Assembly (NCBI GenBank): GCA_963804955.1 | Contig: CAWDSQ010000001.1 | Span: 114,905 to 178,904, forward strand | DNA: 64,000 nucleotides | DNA from: an uncultured delta proteobacterium | GTDB taxonomy: Bacteria; Desulfobacterota; WTBG01; CAIYCZ01; CAIRTM01 | Reading direction: 5' to 3' | Part shown: positions 14,762 through 26,476 of the stretch, piece by piece | How positions within the stretch are numbered: the first letter of the stretch is position 1 | Layout: each line of letters starts with the position of its first letter | Notes under the pieces: generated by a model | Seen by the model: the letters and a program-made list of their open reading frames with translations, nothing else | What the model was told of the DNA's origin: nothing | Databases searched by the model: none | Program-made: the position numbers and the translations under genes

Positions 14762-16006
14762 ATGCGGGTGAACATGACCAAGCCCGAGCGTGCGCAGGAG
14801 GCACTTGAAGAGCGGCTGGAATTTGAGACGCTGCTGGCCAACCTGTCTGCGCATTTTATCAATCTGCCAACCGACCGGATAGACAGCGAGATCGTCGACG
14901 CTCAGCGCCAGATCTGCCAATGCCTTGATATTGACCGCTCCACCCTGTGGCAAATCCCTGAGGATGAGCCAGGGGAAATGCTGCTGACGCACGTGCATCA
15001 GCCCCCGGGAAGCACGCCGCCCCCGGATCGGATGAGCTTGGGGGAGCTGTTTCCCTGGGCAATGCGGCAGGTCATGAGCGGAAGCGTTTTTACCTTCTCG
15101 AAAATTTCAGATTTTCCGCCGCAGGCAGCAATCGACAGGGAGAACCTCCGCCGCTACGGCACCAAGGCCGATGTGCTGGTCCCGCTTTCAAGCGGGGAAG
15201 GGCCGGTCTTCGGCCTGTTGACCTTTGCGGTTTTGCGGGAGGAGCGCGTCTGGACCGAGGCGGTTGTGACGGGGTTCAAGCTTATCGCGCATGTTTTTGC
15301 CGGCGCGCTTGTCCGCAAGCGGGCCGATGAGGAACTGCGGCGCCACGAGCAGGAGCTCGGCAGGCTCACCGGACGCATTATCAATGCCCAGGAAGAGGAG
15401 CTTCGGCGGCTTTCCCGGGAGCTGCATGATGATCTGACGCAGCGGCTTGCGGCCCTGGCGCTTGATGCGGCGCTGATTGAAAAAGAGCTGCATCCCGCGC
15501 AGCCGCGGGCTGTTAACGCCCTCAGGGACATGCGGGCCAGGCTGACCGAGCTTGCCGGGGAAGTCCACAACCTCTCCCGCCAGCTGCACCCCTCCATTCT
15601 CGACGATCTGGGCCTGGCGCAGGCGGTACAGGCTGAATGCGCCGCCTTTGTCAGGAAAACCGGCATTGACCTGTCCTTTACGCCCCAGGACCTGCCGGAT
15701 ACACTGCCCCAGAACATCGCCCTGTGCCTGTACCGCATAATCCGGGAAGGGCTCCAGAACATTGCAAAACACTCGGGGGCCGCCGCGGCCGCTATCGCGC
15801 TGCACGGGCTCCCGGACGGCATTCGTTTGGTTGTCAAGGACAACGGGAGCGGATTTGACCCGGAAACGGCAAAGCAGAAGGCCGGCATCGGCCTGTCCAG
15901 CATGCGGGAGCGGGTGCGGCTCGTAAACGGCGCCATAGCCATTGCCGCAAAGCCGGGACAGGGTGCTGAAATTCAGGTCTTTATTCCATTAGGGGACGCC
16001 CCATGA
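14762..16006 (+). CDS. GAF-domain sensor histidine kinase (HisKA_3, NarX/UhpB type)
   Basis: QEEELRRLSRELHDD H-box, LHPSILDDLGL, EGLQNIAKHS N-box, DNGSGF and GIGLSSMRERV. Confidence 0.92.
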   Translation: MRVNMTKPERAQEALEERLEFETLLANLSAHFINLPTDRIDSEIVDAQRQICQCLDIDRSTLWQIPEDEPGEMLLTHVHQPPGSTPPPDRMSLGELFPWAMRQVMSGSVFTFSKISDFPPQAAIDRENLRRYGTKADVLVPLSSGEGPVFGLLTFAVLREERVWTEAVVTGFKLIAHVFAGALVRKRADEELRRHEQELGRLTGRIINAQEEELRRLSRELHDDLTQRLAALALDAALIEKELHPAQPRAVNALRDMRARLTELAGEVHNLSRQLHPSILDDLGLAQAVQAECAAFVRKTGIDLSFTPQDLPDTLPQNIALCLYRIIREGLQNIAKHSGAAAAAIALHGLPDGIRLVVKDNGSGFDPETAKQKAGIGLSSMRERVRLVNGAIAIAAKPGQGAEIQVFIPLGDAP

Positions 16007-16644
16007 CCAAGCCGCGGCTGCTCATAGCAGACGACCACAAAATTTTTGTTGAGGGTATGAAAAGGCTGCTCAGCTCTGACTTTGACATCGCCGGTGTGGC
16101 CGAAAACGGCCGTGAGCTGGTAGCGGCCGCGGAAAAGCTTCGGCCAGATGTCATCGTTGCCGACATTTCCATGCCCATGCTCAATGGCATAGACGCCGTG
16201 CGGCAGATCAAAAAAGCGCATCCTGAAATCACGGTGGTATTTCTCACCATGCACCCCGATGCAGCCTATGCGTCAAGCGCCCTGCAGGCGGGCGGGTCGG
16301 GCTATGTGCTGAAAAGCTCCGCCCCCGATGAACTCATTACCGCCATCCGCAGGGGCCTTAAGGGAAAAACCTATGTAACGCCCCAGATTGCCGGAAAGCT
16401 CCGGCATGCCGCCGAGCCCGGTTCCCGGGCCGCCAACGGGACTGGCAGCAGCCTTTCTTCCCGGCAGCACGAAGTGCTGCAGCTGCTGGCGGAAGGACAT
16501 GCCGCAAAAGCCATCGCCAGTATTTTGAATATATCCATAAAAACCGTTGAGTATCACAAGTACCGGATGATGGAGGACCTGGGCATCAAGACAACGGCGG
16601 AGCTGATCCGGTATGCCGTGAAGCACGGCATTGCAGGGCCCTGA
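16003..16644 (+). CDS. NarL/LuxR-family response regulator
   Basis: IADDH, DISMP and GYVLK receiver motifs; LSSRQHEVL...SIKTVEYH HTH; ATGA overlap with the kinase. Confidence 0.93.
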   Translation: MTKPRLLIADDHKIFVEGMKRLLSSDFDIAGVAENGRELVAAAEKLRPDVIVADISMPMLNGIDAVRQIKKAHPEITVVFLTMHPDAAYASSALQAGGSGYVLKSSAPDELITAIRRGLKGKTYVTPQIAGKLRHAAEPGSRAANGTGSSLSSRQHEVLQLLAEGHAAKAIASILNISIKTVEYHKYRMMEDLGIKTTAELIRYAVKHGIAGP

Positions 16645-16678
16645 TTACCCCCCCCCCAGGAAAAGCATTCCGCAAAAC

Positions 16679-16721
16679 TAGGATTTCTCCTAATTGACGT
16701 TTCACCGCATTGTTCTATATA
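16679..16721 (+). promoter_or_regulatory. Palindromic operator abutting a sigma70-like promoter
   Basis: TAGGA-TTTC-TCCTA (16679-16692), then TTGACG (16694) and TATATA 16 nt later. Confidence 0.45.
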
Positions 16722-16797
16722 TATCAATAACTCAGTAGACAGTCCCGATCCATCCATCAACGGCGGTCCGCCGGTACCGGCACAGACGAGGTGATTC

Positions 16798-17202
16798 ATG
16801 GCAGCCGAAAGAATAATTCTTGCGGAGTCCCATCAAACCTTTGTGGGCGTGGTTCGCCTGATTCTCGAGGAAACGATGAGCGCCCTGTTCATAGTCGCCG
16901 ACGAGCGCTCTCTTATCGAAGCCGTTGCAGGCACACAATTCGACCTGGTCATTGCGGACCTGTCATTTCCGGCATGTTCGGGGGGGAATGTCGTCAGACT
17001 GCTGCAAAAACTGAAGCCGGAACTCAAGTCCATCATTCTGAGCGTCCATGACGAGCAGACGGTGGTGAATGAATGCCTTGCCGCGGGGGCGAAGGGCTTC
17101 GTGCTCAAGAGAGCGGCAGCCACCGACCTGCTTCCGGCCGTGGAGGCGGTTTTAAAGGGCGGAATGTATGTTTCACCCTATTGCCGCGAACAGGGCGCAT
17201 GA
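16798..17202 (+). CDS. Single-domain response regulator (NarL-type receiver without HTH)
   Basis: DLVIADLSFP, ILSVHDE, GAKGFVLK and GGMYVSP; the first acidic pair is degenerate (AESH). Confidence 0.8.
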   Translation: MAAERIILAESHQTFVGVVRLILEETMSALFIVADERSLIEAVAGTQFDLVIADLSFPACSGGNVVRLLQKLKPELKSIILSVHDEQTVVNECLAAGAKGFVLKRAAATDLLPAVEAVLKGGMYVSPYCREQGA

Positions 17203-17340
17203 CTATACAGAAGCCCGACGGAAGAGCCGGCAGGGAGCCTTGAAAAATTCAGGCAATGAAGGCGCCGCTGTGCGGGCATAGCAAATAGATTTGACGTGAA
17301 CCATAACGTTTTTTTACAACAACCACGGAAAGGGCGGCGT

Positions 17341-18045
17341 ATGAAAATGCAGGGAACAAAATGGGCAGGCATGTTTGCGGTACTGGCGGGCGTATGTCTT
17401 TTGGCGGGGGCCTGCGCGACGATGCAGGCGCGCAGCACGACAACAGCGGGATTTCTGGGCGACTATTCCCAGCTCAAGGAGGGCGGGGAGGGCAAGGCCC
17501 TGCTCGTCTATGTCGACCCGGCGGCGGATTTCAAGGCATATCCCCGTATTATGATGGACCCGGTCAAGCTCTATGCTTCATCGGAGCACAGCATGCAGAA
17601 TGTTTCTTCGGAAGACCGGCAGAAACTTTTAAACTATGCCGATGCCACCATTCGTGAACATCTTGCCAAATATTATACCTTCGTGAAGAGCCCGGGCCCC
17701 GGCGTCATGCGCCTGCGCGTAGCGATAACCGAGGCCGAGAGCTCCTCTGTCGTGCTTGATACCGTCTCCACCATCCTGCCGGTGGGCCTTGCCCTGGCCG
17801 GCCTTCAGACGGCTGCGACGGGCTCGTGCTCTTTTGTGGGCTCTGCCGGGCTTGAAGTCGAGATGCTGGACAGCCAGACCGGCAAGCGCCTGGCTGCGGC
17901 TGTCGATCGCCGGGTAGGCGGCAAGGTGAGCGGAGAGGGCGATAAATTTGACGAATGGCGCACGGTGAAGAGCGCTGTCGATTACTGGGCCGGCCGGCTA
18001 GAGCTTCGCCTGGGCGAAAAACTCGGCAGAATAGCCACACAGTAA
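17341..18045 (+). CDS. DUF3313-like lipoprotein (copy 2 of 3)
   Basis: Lipobox AGAC; near-identical blocks to 6008-6697 and 33476-34165. Confidence 0.8.
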   Translation: MKMQGTKWAGMFAVLAGVCLLAGACATMQARSTTTAGFLGDYSQLKEGGEGKALLVYVDPAADFKAYPRIMMDPVKLYASSEHSMQNVSSEDRQKLLNYADATIREHLAKYYTFVKSPGPGVMRLRVAITEAESSSVVLDTVSTILPVGLALAGLQTAATGSCSFVGSAGLEVEMLDSQTGKRLAAAVDRRVGGKVSGEGDKFDEWRTVKSAVDYWAGRLELRLGEKLGRIATQ

Positions 18046-18135
18046 GCGTACAAGAACCACCGGCGCGAAGGCCCAGGCCGCACTACAGAGGCGCGGGGCG
18101 GGTTCGCGGGGTCATTAGCAGGAAAGGCGCACGGC

Positions 18136-19623
18136 ATGAAACAGCGATCCTTCAGGATGTTTTCCAGTATGCTCTCGCTTACCGGCCTGTTCATTGCGGT
18201 TTTCAATATCGCACTGATAGTCGTTCTGTCGATTGCCGATGCCCTGTCCGCGGGCACACACCCGTATGCCGACCTGGTGATCTGGATCATGCTGCCGTGC
18301 GGCGTTTTGTTCGGCGCGGCCCTGATCATTGCCGGCATCCGGCGGCAGCGACGCACGAAAGGCGGGAGCCGCTTCCCGGTCATCGACCTTAACGATACCG
18401 GGCTGCGCAAAAAAGCGCTCGGCCTGCTGACGGTCCTGGTGCTGCTGTCGGTGCTCTATGCCTTTTCCGGGTATAAGGCCTATGAGTTTTCCGAATCAAA
18501 TACATTCTGCGGAGCCTGCCACACCGTGATGGGGCCTGAAACCAGGTCCAACGCCTACTCGCCACACGCACAGCTCCTGTGCACCAACTGCCACGTGGGG
18601 CCCGGGGCAAAGTACTATTTCATCTCCCATCTGAAAGGAGCCCGGGAGGGCTTCAATTACCTGCTCGACAGATACAGCCGGCCCCTTCATACGCCGATTG
18701 CGGCCCTGCGTCCATCCGAGCATATATGCGAAAACTGTCACGGCCCCAAGTACCAGTTAAACGAGCGGCTTGAAAGCCGCACCTATTTCATGTCCGACAA
18801 GGAGAATTCACGCAAGAAGATCAACCTGCTGTTTAAGCCGGGTAAAACGGACACCACGCTTGAGCAGCCGCCGAAAATGCACTGGCACTCAAGCACCACG
18901 GCTGAAATCGAGTACGCCGATACTGACCCGAAGCGGATCGAGATTCCGTGGATTCGCGTCAAGCGGCTCGACGGAACCGTGCGCACCTACCGCCGCGACG
19001 ACTCGAAGCTCTCGGACGACGACGCGGCAAAGGCCGGGACGAGGCGCATGGACTGCATGGACTGCCACAACCGGACGGGCCATCCCTTTAACCCCCCGGC
19101 GGCTATTCTGAACGCCATGCTCGGGGCGGGGTTCATTGATACGGGCCTGCCGGAGATTAAGCATGTCGGAGTCCAGACACTTGAAGCCTCCTATGCTTCC
19201 CAGGAGGAGGCAGCCAAAGGCATAGAAACGGCAATTCGTGACTTCTATCGCAAGGCCTATCCTGCTGTTGCAAAGGACAAGGAGGCGGCAATCACCTCAG
19301 CGATCACGGCGCTGCAGGGCGCCTACAGCCGCAACTACGACCCGCATATGAAGGTGAGCTGGCGCAGCTTTGGCAGCAATCAGGGGCATATGTATTCGCC
19401 GGGCTGCTTCCGCTGCCATGACGGCAAACACCGAAGCGATGACGGCGCTGTTCTGTCGCAGGACTGCAGCCTGTGCCACCTGCTGATCGAGCGTGTCCCC
19501 GGCCAGGATACTGCCGGAAGCAATCAGGCCGAGATCCGCGTGATGGATTATCCGCACCCCGTTGATATCGGCGACAGGTTGCAGACAATGATGTGTACGA
19601 AATGCCACGGCCCATCATCGTGA
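18136..19623 (+). CDS. Membrane-anchored NapC/NirT-like multiheme cytochrome c (7 CxxCH)
   Basis: Three N-terminal TM helices; ESNTFCGACHTVM.PE...SPH...CTNCHVGPG NapC/NirT signature; heme motifs CGACH, CTNCH, CENCH, CMDCH, CFRCH, CSLCH, CTKCH. Confidence 0.88.
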   Translation: MKQRSFRMFSSMLSLTGLFIAVFNIALIVVLSIADALSAGTHPYADLVIWIMLPCGVLFGAALIIAGIRRQRRTKGGSRFPVIDLNDTGLRKKALGLLTVLVLLSVLYAFSGYKAYEFSESNTFCGACHTVMGPETRSNAYSPHAQLLCTNCHVGPGAKYYFISHLKGAREGFNYLLDRYSRPLHTPIAALRPSEHICENCHGPKYQLNERLESRTYFMSDKENSRKKINLLFKPGKTDTTLEQPPKMHWHSSTTAEIEYADTDPKRIEIPWIRVKRLDGTVRTYRRDDSKLSDDDAAKAGTRRMDCMDCHNRTGHPFNPPAAILNAMLGAGFIDTGLPEIKHVGVQTLEASYASQEEAAKGIETAIRDFYRKAYPAVAKDKEAAITSAITALQGAYSRNYDPHMKVSWRSFGSNQGHMYSPGCFRCHDGKHRSDDGAVLSQDCSLCHLLIERVPGQDTAGSNQAEIRVMDYPHPVDIGDRLQTMMCTKCHGPSS

Positions 19624-19687
19624 CCGGCTGCGACAGGGTAATAGACACAGGCCTGACCCTTCTTGATACATACAGGAAACAAGGGAT

Positions 19688-21876
19688 ATGAAAAAAAGCA
19701 TACAACTTTGCATCATTGCCGCCGCAACACTGGCGAGCCTCCTTGCATGCTTCTTCGCCCCGGCGCCAGCCCCGGCTGAGGAGTCAAGCTGCTTAACCTG
19801 CCACCTGTGCGGTCCCATGCTCGTCAAAAACCGCGGCGTGGCCACGCCCATAGTCTCGGCCATGCAGTCAGGGGCCGGCTGAGGCGGTGCCGTGGCTCAG
19901 TTGGAGCCGCACATAAAAGTGCTTGTTTCCCGGGAGTTTCTTGCCACCGCCCATGGTCAAATCGCGTGCGGAACCTGCCACGGCGGCGACGCTGCCAGCA
20001 TGAGCAAAGCAGCCGCTCACAAGGGGATGGATGCATTTCCCTCCATAACCAATCCGCAGAATACCTGCGGCGCCTGCAAGGACCCGAAAGCGGCACAGCA
20101 CCGTGACATCGCCGCCTCGGCCAAAGATTCCCTGCACGCCAGCCTTGCCACCTTTACCGGGGTGCTCAAGAGCCGCGCGAATATGGAAAAATGGGAAACA
20201 ATCGACGAGGCTCGCAAGAACCACTGCGCCGCCTGTCACACGAGCTGCGGCGGCTGTCATGTGAGCCGTCCCAAATCAGCGCAGAAGGGCTTTATTGCGG
20301 GGCATATCTTTAAAAAGACCCCCGATCAGGTCAATCAGTGCACCGCCTGCCACGGCAGCCGCGTGGGCTATGAATTTTCAGGCCAGCGCGGCAGGGGTGA
20401 TATCCATGCGTCACAAGAGAGTATGACCTGCTCCTCCTGCCACAAGGCAAAAGAGATGCATGCTGCGGCAGCCAAAGACCTGCCGGGCCGCTATCACCTG
20501 CCGGAGGCGGCGCGCTGCGATGATTGTCACAAAGATATGGAGAAAAAGGCCGTGCGGCAGCACGCCGATCATATCGGCAAGGTGCAATGCCAGGTGTGCC
20601 ATTCGCAGACGTATGTCAACTGCTACAGTTGCCATGTGGGCAAAGACAGCCAGAACACGGCCTATTTCCAGAACCGTCTTGAAGTTGAAACCATGAAAAT
20701 CGGGCTCAACTATGACGCTGCAGCTCCGGGCGCCGGCTACCGCTTCATGCTGGTGCGCCACGAGCCGTCGTATCCGGAGATGTTCGATTTCTACGGCAAG
20801 GATCTCTTCACGAACTTCGGCAAGGTGCCCACCTGGAAGCGGACCTCGCCTCACAACATCCAGAAACTCACCTGGCAGGCCGCCAGCTGCAACCACTGCC
20901 ACGCTAATCGCGAGCTGTTCCTTGCAAACGCCGATCTTGCAGACTATGAAATAGGCAGCAAACAAGGCGGTTGTTGTTCCCGACGCCGACATGCCGAAAG
21001 CGGTGCAAGACAGCAGCAAGCTTGACATCGACATATCCCGGGTCAGAACCGGCATGGTGGTTGACGCCCGGTGGCTGCATGACAACAGCAGGCAGAAGGA
21101 TCTGGTCGTCATCGATGCCCGCAGCCGCGCTGCCTACGACAAGGGCCATATCGAAGGCGCCATTTCGCTGGACCCCCTGGTGAGCGGCCTGCGCACCGGC
21201 CCCAAAGCGAAGAACCCCTTCTCGCTTGAAGACCATGCCAAGATTGCCGGCATTTTCGGCAGCAGGGGAATAGCAGCCGAAGATCATATCGTGGTGTATG
21301 ACCAGAACGGCACCATGGCGGCAGGTCTGCTGTCTGTTCTGCAATGGGCCGGCGCTGCCAATGTCTCCTATTTGAACGGCGGCATTGAGGGGTGGCATCT
21401 GGCCGGCTTCCACACGAGCACTGAGCCGTATACCCGTGAAGCGCGCACCTTCGGAGGAACCGTCAGGCCGGAGCTGGTCGTCAGCAGCGCAGAGCTTACC
21501 GGGCTTCTGAAAAAGAACACGGTGGTGCTTATCGATACTCGCGCCATTGATCGGGCCAGGGGACTGACACAACATGAGCTGGCCGGCCGTGCAGGCGCTA
21601 TTGCCGGATCGGTCAATATCCCGCTCGGGGCTTTCTACATGGAAAACGGCTTTTTGAAGCAGCCGGTCCGAGCTGCTGTGGATGCTAGCCACCTATGGCG
21701 TCACGCCGGACAAGACCGTCATCACCACCTGCGACACCGGCATTGCTGCCGCAGATGCCTTTTTCGTCCTTCGGTATCTTGGATTTTCCAACGCCCGGGT
21801 GCATGAAGAAGCCTGGGTGGTGTGGTCTAACACAGTGGATATGACGCCGCTTCAGTGCGGCAGTGGTATTTTTTAG
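19688..21876 (+). CDS. Candidate selenocysteine-containing multiheme cytochrome c fused to tandem rhodanese domains (UGA at 19880-19882; +1 frameshifts near 20955 and 21666)
   Basis: ORFs 19688-19882 and 19892-21025 are in the same frame, separated only by TGA and GGC GGT GCC. There are 10 CxxCH and 1 CxxCK. Removing one G at each of two GG sites joins the rhodanese pieces (IDAR...YDKGHIEGAI; IDTR...GSVNIP; ITTCDTGIAA). Confidence 0.75.
19883..19912 (+). promoter_or_regulatory. Putative bacterial SECIS element
   Basis: Stem GUGGCUC (19892-19898) / GAGCCGC (19904-19910) with loop AGUUG; the loop starts 16 nt after UGA and has G at position 2 followed by U. Confidence 0.65.
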
Positions 21877-21903: not shown

Positions 21904-22001
21904 TCGTCACCCCCGGTGAAAACCGGGGCACAGGGTAGGGGCACGAAGCATCGTGCCCCCCACATAAGAATCCTGGATACCGGCTTTCGCCGGTATGACG
22001 A
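21904..22001. repeat. CGTC-type REP doublet with a nested GTAG-type REP
   Basis: TCGTCACCCCCGGTGAAAACCGGGG...CTGGATACCGGCTTTCGCCGGTATGACGA encloses GTAGGGGCACGAAGCATCGTGCCCCC (starts 21935). Confidence 0.65.
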
Positions 22002-22139: not shown

Positions 22140-23328
22140 ATGAAAACGAGCGTCGCAAAGACCGTGAGGACCACCCCTTTAAAATTATTACCCTTTTTCC
22201 TGATCGCAAGCCTGTTTACTAGTGCTTCCTTCGGGGTGCTCGAAAGAGCAGAAGGCGCCGGCCCTGCCGCCGCCGGACGTTGAGGTTATCGATGTGGTGC
22301 AGAAAGATGTGCCCATCCAGTCCGAGTGGATCGGCACGATCGACGGCATGGTGAACGCCACTATCAGGGCGCAGGTATCGGGCTATCTCATCAAGCAGAA
22401 TTACAAGGAAGGCTCGCTGGTAAAAAAAGATGATGTGCTGTTTGAAATAGACCCCCGGCCGTTTCAGGCTGCCTTTGACCAGGCGCAGGCCGAGCTTGCG
22501 CAGCGGCAGGCCCTCTGGGGCACGTCAAAGGCCAATCTTGCGCGCATCCGGCCTCTGGCAAAGAAAAATGCCGTGAGCCAGAAAGACCTCGACGATGCCG
22601 TGGGCGCTGAGCAGTCGCTGCAGGCCGGCGTTCTTGCGGCCAAAGCAGCTTTCGAAAAAGCGGCGCTTGATCTTGAATTTACAAAAATAAAATCACCCAT
22701 CGACGGCATTGCAGGCCTTGCCGCCGCACAGATCGGCAACCTCGTGGGGCCGCAAACCGCCGACCTCACCACGGTTTCCACGGTTGACCCGGTGAAGGTC
22801 TATGTGGCGATCAGCGAGCAGGAATACATGCGGTTCATGCAGGATAGCGCCCCGCACAGAACCCCTGGCGCTGGACCTTGTGCTGTGCCGACGGCAGCCT
22901 GTTTCCGCATAAGGGGAAAGTCGCTTTTGCCGACCGGCAGGTTGATGTGAAGACCGGGTCGATTCGCGTTGCCACCGAGTTTCCCAATCCCGGCAATGTG
23001 CTGCGGCCGGGCCAGTATGCGAAGGTCAGGGCGTCCGTCAAAACGCGCACCGGCGCGCTGCTGGTGCCGCAGCGGGCGGTTGCCGACATGCAGGGCAGCT
23101 ATCAGCTGGCCGTCGTCGGCAAGGACAATAAGGTGAGCGTGCGTCGCCGTGAAGGTGGCCGAGCGCATCGGCTCGCTCTGGATCATCAGCGAAGGCCTGC
23201 AGCCCGGCGACCGCGTGATCGTGGAAGGCATTCAGAAGGTCAAGGACGGCATGACGGTTGTGCCGAAACTTTCAGGCGACAGCCCTGCACCAGCGCCGGC
23301 GCCTGCGCCGGCACCCGACAAGAGGTAG
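22140..23328 (+). CDS. RND efflux periplasmic adaptor (membrane fusion protein), at least three frameshifts
   Basis: PSGC lipobox-like motif, IRAQVSGYL, LFEIDPRPFQA, IKSPIDGIAG, FPNPGNVLRPGQY and GLQPGDRVIVEG in successive frames. Confidence 0.85.
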
Positions 23329-23334
23329 CCAGCC

Positions 23335-26300
23335 ATGTCAAAATTCTTCATCAATCGCCCTATTGTGGCCATGGTTATCTCGATCTTCATGGTCATCCTC
23401 GGCGCTGTGGCCATGTCGGGACTTCCCATCGCCCAGTTTCCCAACATTGTTCCGCCGGCTATCCAGGTGAATGCCGTCTACACCGGCGCCGACGCCGTCA
23501 CCGTGGAGCAGTCGGTGGCTACCCCGATCGAGCAGCAGATGTCCGGCGTTGACAATCTGGACTACATGTACTCCGTCAATGCCAACGACGGTTCCATGAC
23601 CCTCTATAACTACTTCGAACTGGGGACCAACGCCAACACCGACCAGATCCTCTCCCAGATGCGCCAGAACCAGGCGTCATCGCAACTGCCGGCCGATGTC
23701 AACAACTACGGTGTTACGGTGGCGAAATCGACCTCGGCGCCGTACCTCATGTTCGCTCTCTCTTCTCCCAACAACACCTACGACAACGTCTTTCTGGCCA
23801 ACTACTCCTACATCAACATCAACGACCAGATGACCCGCATCAAGGGGGTCGCCAGCGTCTCGGTCTTCGGCGCCGGCCAGTACGCCATGCGGTATCTGGG
23901 TCCGGCCGGACCAGCTTGCCAAGCTCAACATCACCATCCCGGAGATCATGAACGCGGTCAAGGCCCAGAATACCGTCAACCCGGCCGGACAGGTCGGGAG
24001 CCAGCCGGTGCCGAAGGGGCAGGAGTTCACCTACACGGTTCGCGCCCAGGGGCGTCTGCAGAGCGAGGCCGAGTTCGGCAATATCGTGCTGCGGGCCAAT
24101 CCGGACGGTTCCATCGTGCGGGTGAAGGACGTGGCCCGCATCGAGCTTGGGGCACAGAACTACAAACAGGAAGGGCGCCTCAACGGCAAGCCCTGCGCCC
24201 TGGTCGCCCTGTACCAGATGCCGGGAACCAACGCCATGGAATCGGCCAACGGCGCCAAGAAACTGATGGATGGAGTTGAAGAAGAGCTTCCCGCCTGACC
24301 TGGACTACACGGTGGCGCTGGACACCACCCTGGCGGTCTCCGAAGGGATAAAGGAAATCAAGAGCACCTTCTTCGAGGCGCTGATTCTGGTCATCCTGGT
24401 GGTCTTTATCTTCCTCCAGGGGTGGCGGGCCACGCTGATCCCGCTCCTGGCGGTGCCGGTGTCGCTGGTGGGAACCTTCGCGCTCTTCCCGCTGCTCGGC
24501 TTTTCCATCAACACCCTCTCGCTTTTCGGGATGGTCCTTGCCATCGGCCTGGTCGTGGATGACGCCATTGTCGTGGTCGAGGCGGTGGAGCATCATATCG
24601 AAAAAGGCCTGAGCCCGAAGGATGCCACGTTCAAGGCCATGGAGGAGGTGTCCGGCCCGGTCATCGCCATCGCCATCATCCTGGCGGCGGTCTTCGTGCC
24701 GACGGCCTTCATCCCCGGCATTACCGGCCAGCTTTACCAGCAGTTCGCCGTGACCATCGCCGTCTCGGTCATCATTTCGGCCTTCAACGCCCTCACCCTT
24801 TCTCCGGCGCTCTGTGCACTGCTGCTGAAGCCGAAGGTCAAGGGAACCGGCCCGCTGCAGAAGTTCTACGACTGGTTCAACCGGGTCTTCGGCCGGGCCA
24901 CCGACGGCTACGTGTCAATCTGCGGCGCCGCCATCAGGAAAAGCAAGACCAGTCTGCTCCTGCTGCTCGGGGTGACCGTCCTGGCCGGGGTAGCGGGTAA
25001 GAGCCATTCCGACCGGCTTCCTCCCCGACGAGGACCAGGGCTTTATCTTCGCCAATATCCAGCTCCCCAATTCCGCTTCGCTGCAGCGGACCAGTGAAGT
25101 GGCCCGTCAGGCCGAAGAGATCATCATGAAAACCCCGGGCGTCCAGTACTGTTCGACGATTCTCGGCTACAGCCTGCTGAGCCAGGTCAGCTAACACCTA
25201 CAGCGCCTTTTTCTTCATCTCCCTGAAAGAGTGGAAGGAGCGGAAAGCTCCGGAAGAGCAGTACGAGGCGATCAAGGCCTCCCTGACGAAAAAGATGGGC
25301 GGGCTGCCGGGCGCCATCGGCTTCCCGTTCCCGCCACCGGCCATCATGGGGATCGGCACCTCGGGCGGGGCCACCTTCATGCTGCAGGACAAGGCCGGCA
25401 AGGATGTCGCCTTCCTGGCCGAGAACACGCAGAAATTCATCGAAGCGGCCAGGAAAAGGCCTGAACTGGCCCGGGTCACCACCACCTTCATCCCCACCGT
25501 GCCGCAGCTGTTCGTGGATGTGGACCGGGACAAGGTGCTGAAGCAGGGGGTTGAGATCAGCGACGTCTACAAGGTCCTGCAGAGCTTCATGGGGAGCGGT
25601 TTCATCAACTACTTCAACAAATTCGGCCGCCAGTGGCAGACCTATATCCAGGCCGAGGGGGACTACCGGACCAATATCGAGAATATCGGCCAGTTCTATG
25701 TGCGCAACAAGGACGGGCAATCAGTGCCCCTCTCGGCGCTGACTTCGGTTCGCAGCATCACCGGCCCGGAATTCACCATGCGCTTCAACCTCTACCGCTC
25801 GGCCCAGATCAACGCCACCGCGGCCCCCGGCTTCAGTTCGGCCCAGGCCATGAAGGCGCTGGAAGAGACCTTTGCCCAGACCATGCCGCGGGAGATGGGG
25901 TACGACTACAGCGGCATGTCGTTCCAGGAGAAGAAGGCCCAGAAGGGGGTCTCGCCGATGGCGATCTTCGCCTTCTCGTTCCTGTGCGTCTTCCTGATCC
26001 TGGCGGCCCAGTACGAAAGCTGGTCGCTGCCGTTCTCGGTCCTGCTGGGAACGCCGGTGGCCGTGGCCGGAGCCTTCGCCGGCCTGCTCTTCGGAAAATT
26101 CGAGAACAACATCTACGCCCAGATCGGTCTGGTCATGCTGATCGGCCTGGCGGCCAAGAACGCCATCCTCATCGTCGAATTCGCCAAGATGGAGTATGAG
26201 AAGGGCAAACCGCTGGTGGAAGCGACCCTGGAGGGCGCCAGGCTGCGCTTGCGGCCGATCCTGATGACCTCCTTCGCCTTCATCCTCGGCTGCGTGCCGC

Positions 26301-26476
26301 TGGCCATCGCCAGCGGGGCCGGCGCCATCTCGCGGCAGGTCATGGGGTACACCGTCATCTTCGGGATGCTGGCCGCCTCCTTCATCGCCATCTTCCTGAT
26401 ACCGGTTACCTATTATGTCGTGGAGAAGCTGTCTCACGGTGGCGCAAAGGCAAAAACAGAAGCGGAGGTAGTGTAA
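23335..26476 (+). CDS. HAE1-family multidrug efflux RND permease (AcrB/MexB-like), about four frameshifts
   Basis: MSKFFINRPIVA, GLVVDDAIVVVE, ALTLSPALCA, GLAAKNAILIVEFA and RLRPILMTS motifs. Confidence 0.9.

Follow-up and report, generated by a model that had tools for sequence, protein, structure and literature searches.

What is the role of a heptaheme membrane protein whose gene lies directly upstream of one specifying a multiheme rhodanese with an in-frame UGA? The question is raised by a 64,000-nt stretch of the genome of an uncultured delta proteobacterium (assembly GCA_963804955.1, contig CAWDSQ010000001.1, positions 114,905 to 178,904; hereafter the window, to which coordinates given without a contig refer). 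A sequence-only reading had depicted the pair as a compact respiratory module in which a NapC/NirT-like anchor passes quinol electrons to a selenocysteine (Sec)/rhodanese active site. In the analysis reported here the novelty rests in the second gene (gene B), which belongs to a widespread, mis-annotated family of Sec-containing multiheme rhodaneses; gene A, the anchor, codes for a variant of the known protein ImcH.

Gene B and its in-frame UGA

Gene B (19688..21876, + strand) starts with an ATG at 19688, on the same strand as gene A and 64 nt after it, and ends with a TAG at 21874-76. Allowing for two likely sequence errors (see below), it would specify a secreted selenoprotein of ~715-730 aa with 11 c-type hemes and a tandem rhodanese. 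Its elements follow one another in the order: a signal-peptide-like start (19688..19777, + strand; a hydrophobic stretch ending in Ala-X-Ala, judged by eye and by hydropathy), one CxxCH motif, the in-frame TGA, nine more CxxCH motifs and one CxxCK, and the rhodanese.

The UGA (19880..19882, + strand) would be read as Sec 65 within a GxG-U-GG motif conserved in homologous loci. A genome scan yielded at least 516 confirmed B loci, the best 80 of which are the basis of the counts given here for B loci. TGA occupied the codon-65 position in 77 of these, the remaining three being truncated or frameshifted there. It was also present in 26 of 26 further loci, six of them from relatives in the window's order and 20 hand-picked from the 44 positive genomes of a phylum sample (at least two of the 26 repeat earlier contigs); some of these showed G-U-AG or G-U-GV. 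At +10 to +28 after the UGA lies a bacterial selenocysteine insertion sequence (SECIS) hairpin (19892..19910, + strand). Among 64 distinct sequences its pairs were retained in 57-64, and compensatory changes were seen. Of 118 columns compared for synonymous codon use, the three under the strongest constraint fell inside this hairpin (CCG 99%, TTG 94% and GTG 88%; the other conserved degenerate columns reached 87% at most, with 47% as the median). When the window hairpin was set against 2000 synonymous shuffles, 97.7% of these were less stable. The window hairpin also resembled those that follow the UGA in two of three formate dehydrogenase (FDH)-like genes of the same genome, which carries tRNA-Sec, SelB and SelA. 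Together with the Cys homologs described next, these results leave little doubt that gene B specifies a selenoprotein, as the sequence-only reading had supposed.

The residues found at the Sec column were surveyed in 40 representatives covering the N-terminus, two of which were dropped as they lacked the motif pair. Among the other 38, ten had Cys in the column, three had Cys nearby and 25 had neither; because these 25 have no Cys there, the residue at the Sec position is not shared by the whole of the wider family. Representatives P0256, P0261, P0284 and P0310, one of which is a full 715-aa rhodanese fusion, had Tyr, Trp or His in this column. Since several residues seen there can be heme ligands, there is a hint that the Sec position lies at a heme. 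A second subfamily (L207-L210, L217-L219 and L222-L225) was recognized by its GxG-U-AG motif and split rhodanese, often followed by a cytochrome with 6-9 hemes.

Were the UGA a true stop, the locus would specify a short peptide with one heme and, separately, a decaheme-rhodanese without a leader, or would be a pseudogene. All the 120 database homologs among the matches listed (of 576) are indeed annotated as starting downstream of the UGA, and the window copy contains two frameshifts, each of one extra base (20952..20954 and 21665..21667, + strand). However, the downstream piece would then be left without a signal peptide, the codon does not vary from TGA, and there are a SECIS element and Cys homologs besides. 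The frameshifts, for their part, are most likely assembly errors, because contigs from three public runs (X1, X2 and X3) have one base fewer at both places and three intact B homologs align across the breaks; no run, compared in this way as contigs, reaches half of the window's words. Pseudogenization was rejected as the explanation of the frameshifts since they were absent from the three runs, and termination at the UGA is scarcely credible.

The motif for heme 3 takes the form CxxCK-x6-H, with a seven-residue insertion (20066..20101, + strand); among loci with context, this was found only in the clade paired with ImcH. The CxxCK was considered as a Lys-ligated site of the NrfA type, which was rejected on account of an aligned His seven residues later. 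As this His occupies the alignment column of the motif His in every other B homolog, ligation of heme 3 by His is at least as likely.

The rhodanese and heme domains of B

The tandem rhodanese (21056..21876, + strand) is of the TST/MST type, with Asp at the catalytic position of its N-terminal domain and a predicted catalytic Cys in the TCDTGIA loop of its C-terminal domain (21730..21732, + strand). Such a Cys loop was present in 56 of 57 full-length B fusions, and in three of four fusions inspected the Sec and the rhodanese Cys were the sole non-heme chalcogen residues. When the intact homolog from locus L091 was modelled, with U entered as C and an alignment of 139 rows, the predicted local distance difference test score (pLDDT) was 90.7 and the predicted template modelling score (pTM) 0.90; the block containing the Sec, where 20 rows cover, was among the lowest (67). 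The C-terminal 265 residues of this model superposed on tandem rhodaneses (Z ~32, root-mean-square deviation (rmsd) 1.8-2.2), and Sud (1qxn) and Npsr (3nt6) were among the structure matches of the B rhodanese.

The heme domain was less informative. The sole structure match listed for that of L091 was the octaheme tetrathionate reductase (OTR) 1sp3 (Z 8.8, rmsd 5.0, 273 residues), which is a hint only; its fold was barely probed, since rhodaneses took up the Foldseek and VIA lists. A sequence profile search of the PDB with the heme domain returned generic multiheme matches only, and the heme domain of the window, folded on a 12-row alignment, gave an unusable model (pLDDT 38.9). B has 11 conserved non-motif histidines for its 11 hemes; because these numbers match, no open catalytic heme is evident from its sequence.

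Gene A is a derived member of the ImcH family

Gene A (18136..19623, + strand) specifies a 495-aa protein with hydrophobic segments at ~8-41, 44-69 and 92-115 and CxxCH motifs at positions 125/149/198/307/424/444/487. The open reading frame (ORF) thus bore out the three transmembrane (TM) helices, the seven hemes and the place 64 nt upstream of B, on the same strand, that had been read from the sequence. The NapC/NirT N-terminal region of Pfam was the sole NapC-type model to pass (28.7 bits against a cut-off of 24.1); the NrfH and NapC family models, TIGR03153 (39.7 against 134.2) and TIGR02161 (19.8 against 310.6), both remained below theirs. These failures at the cut-offs of curated hidden Markov models (HMMs), the three TM helices and the seven hemes ruled out a tetraheme NapC, NirT or NrfH. 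Published descriptions of ImcH, in contrast, give it seven hemes along with three TM helices and a NapC-like region (PMC4251993; PMC6295460; bioRxiv 2023.05.03.539133; like all the papers named here, these are cited from the accessible parts of their text). Gene A has this layout, with three N-terminal TM helices, seven heme motifs at ImcH spacing and a length within 495-519 aa. The proposal of an unusual NapC/NirT protein with extra hemes was consequently given up, three TM helices and seven hemes being standard in the ImcH family, and so was that of a novel NapC type.

A search for ImcH matched 120 of 151 Geobacterales genomes, mostly in single copy and at ~38% identity. The proteins of L174 and L175, which have 507 aa, start with MTLRKT and carry E127, H137, K173, Q179 and Y188 as published, were 37% identical to gene A across its full length. 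Gene A retains the equivalents of E127, H137 and Y188. At the quinone site, E127 and Y188 are thus kept, whereas K173 is replaced by His (H165) and Q179 by Glu (E171), and heme 1 is bound by CX2CH instead of CX3CH. This CX2CH form was found in gene A and in 12 of the 120 homologs listed, 11 of these 12 also having the His, and marks a subclade with a support of 100. Judged from its sequence, gene A is homologous to ImcH, which is known from Geobacter as a quinol oxidase; having CX2CH and being nested among CX3CH homologs, it is taken to be a derived variant and not a canonical ImcH.

Association of genes A and B

The two genes are separated by a 64-nt spacer (19624..19687, + strand) with a purine-rich stretch resembling a ribosome-binding site and no terminator-like site found within it. 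Contig X3:27, from a near-identical strain, bridges genes A and B, covering 19180-19855. The RNA run X20 contained pieces on both genes, none of those listed extending across the spacer; A and B may well be co-transcribed. The promoter scan gave two sites, 1.8 being expected, and nothing matched in Rfam. Prediction of a complex between residues 90-495 of A and the post-UGA heme domain of B scored 0.00 in two runs in which the controls were unfolded, and is evidence neither way.

In the CX2CH/K173H subclade of A, B lay directly downstream in six of six loci with context (the window, L089-L091, L009 and L010). These loci span Syntrophorhabdaceae, Syntrophaceae and the present genome, and their flanks differ. 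DNA similarity between the window and L089-L091 was essentially confined to 18129-21833, i.e. to genes A and B, with different flanks, and the spacer in L089-L091 was ~60-70 nt. The B proteins of relatives from the same order, on the other hand, were only 36-40% identical to that of the window, which, with the limited extent of the similarity to L089-L091, suggests that the cassette moved as a unit. The A-B pair is a conserved cassette in one clade, in which both proteins have derived motifs.

Across the wider family the constant partner of B is the rhodanese, while ImcH is not constant. In the best 80 B loci the rhodanese was fused to B in 61 and specified by the next gene in eight; it was undetected by the profile in four, and the flank was too short in seven. 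It was also the next gene in five of the six loci from order relatives and in 16 of the 20 phylum loci. ImcH was found upstream on the same strand in three of the 80 loci and convergent downstream in 17, and some ImcH was present in 25 of 50 genomes tested that carry B, which account for 50 of the 80 loci. When 80 metagenome loci for ImcH were examined (53 with at least 1 kb downstream), B was seen in two (L009 and L010; 73% identity, extending downstream) and 78 showed no B. Among 21 genomes of the window's order, six had B and only the present one had ImcH.

The upstream and convergent ImcH groups each formed one clade on the B tree, and a single clade for all B-adjacent ImcH proteins was rejected (approximately unbiased test, p-AU 2.8e-5, quick tree of 28 rows); from these sequences, ImcH appears to have been recruited beside B a second time, independently. 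Being convergent, this second pairing forms no operon. One genome of the phylum sample (G305:C28:9464-20494) contained B together with an ImcH of the 6-heme type, which lies on the same strand at a distance of 8.6 kb.

Cytochromes of other kinds also adjoin B. Cytochrome c3 was found beside it in nine loci, a PhsC-like cytochrome b561 was fused to it in P0003 (Pfam), of which P0004 is an aligned relative, and a cytochrome b561 lay 8 nt behind it in L161 and L168. In two of the three loci closest to the window, an Ech-type (group 4) membrane hydrogenase operon begins on the same strand ~125 nt after B (from L089:7526 and L091:12270). In order relatives L199, L200, L202 and L204, B is likely a lipoprotein form with a split tandem rhodanese, and lies in large clusters with 7-20-heme cytochromes, an MtrB porin, cytochrome b561 and FGE-sulfatase-domain genes. 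In L201 (5968-10089), an aminotransferase class V gene (cysteine desulfurase/Sec lyase-like), an MBL-fold gene and DUF1847 flank B in place of the rhodanese. A B homolog followed by cytochrome c3 was also found on a contig labelled as belonging to a Promethearchaeota archaeon (L136); it may be mis-binned or transferred, since it is nested among Desulfobacterales sequences.

A proposed function and its alternatives

The preferred reading is that B is a periplasmic oxidoreductase that acts on sulfane sulfur by means of its Sec and 11 hemes. The rhodanese Cys would be loaded, as a persulfide, with sulfane sulfur from polysulfide or thiosulfate; the Sec, on its Gly-rich loop, would attack the S-S bond of this persulfide, by analogy with MccSep (PMC13510729); and the heme chain would reduce the product to sulfide. 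MccSep also provides the precedent that Sec-heme reduction of polysulfide exists (PMC13510729). In this lineage only, the adjacent ImcH variant would supply electrons from the quinone pool, directly or via a small cytochrome, while other lineages are likely to use other membrane or periplasmic partners, such as cytochrome b561, cytochrome c3 or the second ImcH type. That B acts on sulfane sulfur is probable, and that A serves B in this clade is favoured with somewhat less assurance. The first claim draws on the constancy of the rhodanese in or beside B, on the Sec and the rhodanese Cys as sole non-heme chalcogens in three of the four fusions inspected, on the weak match to OTR and on the MccSep precedent; the second draws on the six of six subclade loci with B directly downstream, on the second recruitment of ImcH and on the cytochrome b561 fused to B or placed closely behind it. 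The complete reading, in which sulfane sulfur is reduced by the Sec, hemes and rhodanese of B with electrons from an ImcH variant, is put forward tentatively and is, on balance, slightly doubtful.

Of the ideas drawn earlier from the sequence, a molybdenum-free heme/Sec/rhodanese protein with a quinone-interacting partner is supported by these results. The total of ~17-18 hemes was close, the two proteins summing to 7+11 = 18, and no molybdopterin subunit is present in the window, matches to such domains being located on contigs C7 and C13. As regards the Nap and Nrf subunits, a genome-wide scan for NrfA gave weak matches on C20 only, the window not being screened separately. MccSep (NF040886) gave nothing above cut-off in the genome.

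Several observations weigh against the preferred reading. Cys was missing at or near the Sec column in the 25 of 38 full-length representatives mentioned above. Five order relatives carry B with no ImcH match, and among the 44 B loci flanked by at least 2 kb on either side, 28 lack an ImcH in the neighbourhood. In a sample of 400 other genomes of the phylum, evenly spread and scored for B and ImcH (kin among them are not independent), B was present in 44, ImcH in 41 and both in four, against 4.5 expected. The second ImcH pairing is convergent and a single clade. The genome also has a large multiheme cytochrome cluster (G000:C24:37129-59950), with up to 14 CxxCH motifs per ORF and an MtrB/PioB porin, which is a possible extracellular electron transfer conduit and could be fed by ImcH instead of B. 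In addition, with menaquinol at ~-74 mV and polysulfide at ~-260 mV, electrons would have to flow uphill. The characterized ImcH is encoded monocistronically and passes electrons to PpcA; its reaction is electroneutral, and the acceptors that it serves lie above -100 mV (PMC4251993; bioRxiv 2023.05.03.539133). Given this electroneutrality, this range of acceptors and the uphill step from menaquinol to polysulfide, tetrathionate or selenite may serve as the acceptor, a low-potential quinone may be in use, or the flow may be reversed.

Rare co-occurrence, which had been named beforehand as speaking against a general two-gene module, is what the phylum sample and the 78 ImcH loci lacking B revealed. 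The conserved pairing postulated earlier thus survives in the closest relatives (L089, L090, L091, L009 and L010) and falls as a general arrangement. The same lack of association at the genome level would be expected if A and B were co-travelling neighbours that work apart, A, as an ordinary ImcH, feeding periplasmic cytochromes and a porin-cytochrome conduit that reduces metals or electrodes, while B draws on the general periplasmic pool. The promiscuity of ImcH towards Ppc cytochromes (bioRxiv 2023.05.03.539133), the multiheme cluster with its MtrB porin, and the single clade formed by the paired loci, which counts as one event, all agree with this. However, the spacer has been kept at ~60-70 nt though the proteins have diverged to 72-76% identity and the flanks have changed, the derived motifs of both proteins coincide with the pairing, and the second recruitment of ImcH was independent. 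That A and B work apart is regarded as unlikely.

The potentials given above bear on the direction of the flow. B might oxidize sulfide or polysulfide, or run the oxidative branch of sulfur disproportionation, the electrons entering menaquinone via the altered ImcH; on those potentials this would be downhill. The heme-1/quinone site of the paired ImcH is altered (CX2CH, K173H and Q179E), many B carriers are Desulfobulbaceae or Desulfocapsaceae, families that include sulfur disproportionators, and the hemes of ImcH span -150 to -358 mV (bioRxiv 2023.05.03.539133), all of which would suit such a reversal. Yet in the accessible text ImcH homologs are reported only as quinol oxidases (PMC6295460), MccSep, the only characterized Sec multiheme protein, is a reductase (PMC13510729), and no dsrA was found above cut-off in this 87%-complete genome. 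A reversed flow is likewise rated as unlikely.

B might also be a periplasmic enzyme that detoxifies or traffics selenite, persulfide or polysulfide, with ImcH as its electron source but with no respiratory function. Rhodaneses are in general carriers of chalcogens, and the distribution of B is patchy, no copy having been found in four genomes of the same genus (76-90% complete). MccSep, moreover, also reduces selenite (PMC13510729). In contrast, the 11 hemes, the dedicated quinone-interacting partners and the large cytochrome clusters of relatives look like high-flux metabolism, and a role in detoxification or trafficking alone seems improbable.

DNA flanking the pair

The hairpin cluster noted earlier behind the pair was found again as three GC-rich hairpins (21909..21998, no strand assigned), which may also end the transcript. 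The stretch at ~21909-21998 had 17 blastn matches in the genome, and, being multicopy, is REP-like. Further downstream, an RND efflux operon (MFP and permease; 22222-26476) is broken into several ORFs, probably by more single-base assembly errors, which is a reason to distrust gene breaks on this contig. Upstream, on the same strand (14762-18045), lie a two-component system (HisKA_3 kinase, LuxR regulator and a single receiver) and a DUF3313 protein; the L091 pair also has a nearby member of the DUF3313 cluster and a kinase-gene segment.

Significance of the B family

Of 401 genomes sampled from the phylum, 45 carried B. All 120 of its listed entries are cut at the UGA and labelled as sulfurtransferase, rhodanese-domain or hypothetical proteins, or left unnamed. 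The family bears on the question of how many anaerobes can do without Psr or Phs when they reduce or disproportionate elemental sulfur and thiosulfate. It is conceivable, though we would not call it probable, that B founds a widespread, unannotated second class of multiheme selenoenzymes, OTR-like, with 11 hemes and a persulfide-loading rhodanese of their own. In roughly one in ten of the phylum's sampled genomes, and elsewhere, such enzymes might fill the place of a missing reductase that acts on polysulfide or thiosulfate without molybdenum, or might oxidize sulfane sulfur in disproportionators. They would be linked to quinones by interchangeable modules, here an ImcH re-tuned from metal reduction to sulfur chemistry. 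The cassette would also be the first instance in which a quinol oxidase of the ImcH type serves a catalytic enzyme and not extracellular electron transfer. The claim for B is directly testable since cultured or tractable carriers exist, namely Malonomonas rubra DSM 5091 (L149) and possibly Dethiobacter.

Comparison with known systems

No NCBIfam model came near its cut-off for gene B, that for ExtKL/MccSep (NF040886) giving no match, and membership of the GSU2204 family was discarded since no NCBIfam match was near the cut-off. In the accessible part of a table of 119 selenoprotein families (PMC13188914), no row was seen that fits B, the GenBank-annotated OTR row being compared by description only. 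The literature covered, with subscription journals mostly outside it, yielded no description of this Sec family; the accessible parts of PMC13047784, PMC13490349 and PMC11492766 make no mention of the B protein, and 20 B-family representatives that were looked up included no named Dethiobacter or characterized member. Judged by these comparisons, the B family is unlisted, matching no NCBIfam model and no row of the 119-family list.

One published protein nevertheless recalls it. DealDRAFT_1917 (OMD50_RS07060) of Dethiobacter alkaliphilus has 10 hemes, no signal peptide and a rhodanese as the next gene, and was up-regulated on thiosulfate in strain AHT1; its 39.3-kDa homolog in strain Z-1002 was detected in non-ferrihydrite (S-labelled) samples (PMC10376724). 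This possibly represents the post-UGA fragment of a B-family protein, a lead by description and not by sequence.

Compared with the characterized ImcH (GSU3259, Geobacter), gene A shares the three TM helices, the NapC/NirT-like region and the seven hemes with matching spacing. GSU3259 is monocistronic and has a CX3CH heme 1, K173 and Q179, whereas gene A lies directly upstream of a candidate catalytic enzyme and has CX2CH, His and Glu.

OTR (TIGR04315, PDB 1sp3) is linked to B by the weak fold match described above and a weak HMM match of 19.2 bits, the cut-off being 375; a Z near 8 may mean only a common arrangement. B differs from it in its Sec, its rhodanese and its 11 heme motifs instead of eight, and was not assigned to it. 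The C-terminus of B shares with RhdA, SseA/MST and TST the Asp in domain 1 and the Cys in domain 2. Unlike these proteins, the B rhodanese is predicted to be exported and is fused to a multiheme Sec domain, and its active loop, C[DN]TG, differs from those of TST and MST.

MccSep/ExtKL, described in 2026 as a Sec-heme polysulfide reductase and the first of its kind, also has features in common with B: it is a periplasmic multiheme cytochrome with one Sec and no molybdenum, found in Desulfobacterota and Nitrospirota (PMC13510729). It has, however, five hemes, with the Sec at residue 325 and a heme-ligating Cys239 (PMC13510729), while B has 11 hemes, a fused rhodanese and, in its heme domain, no conserved free Cys that might act as the His/Cys ligand; its Sec is placed close to the N-terminus, on a Gly-rich loop that separates heme 1 from heme 2. 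With no NF040886 match, 11 hemes instead of five and a different Sec placement, B was rejected as an MccSep; the B family combines the same ingredients, in an unrelated sequence, with a built-in sulfur carrier.

The last comparison concerns this carrier. In Psr-Sud of Wolinella and in Npsr, a rhodanese hands sulfane sulfur to the reductase. These systems use molybdopterin or FAD/CoA; in B, hemes and Sec would fill that role. B would thus work like MccSep or Psr-Sud while belonging to neither.

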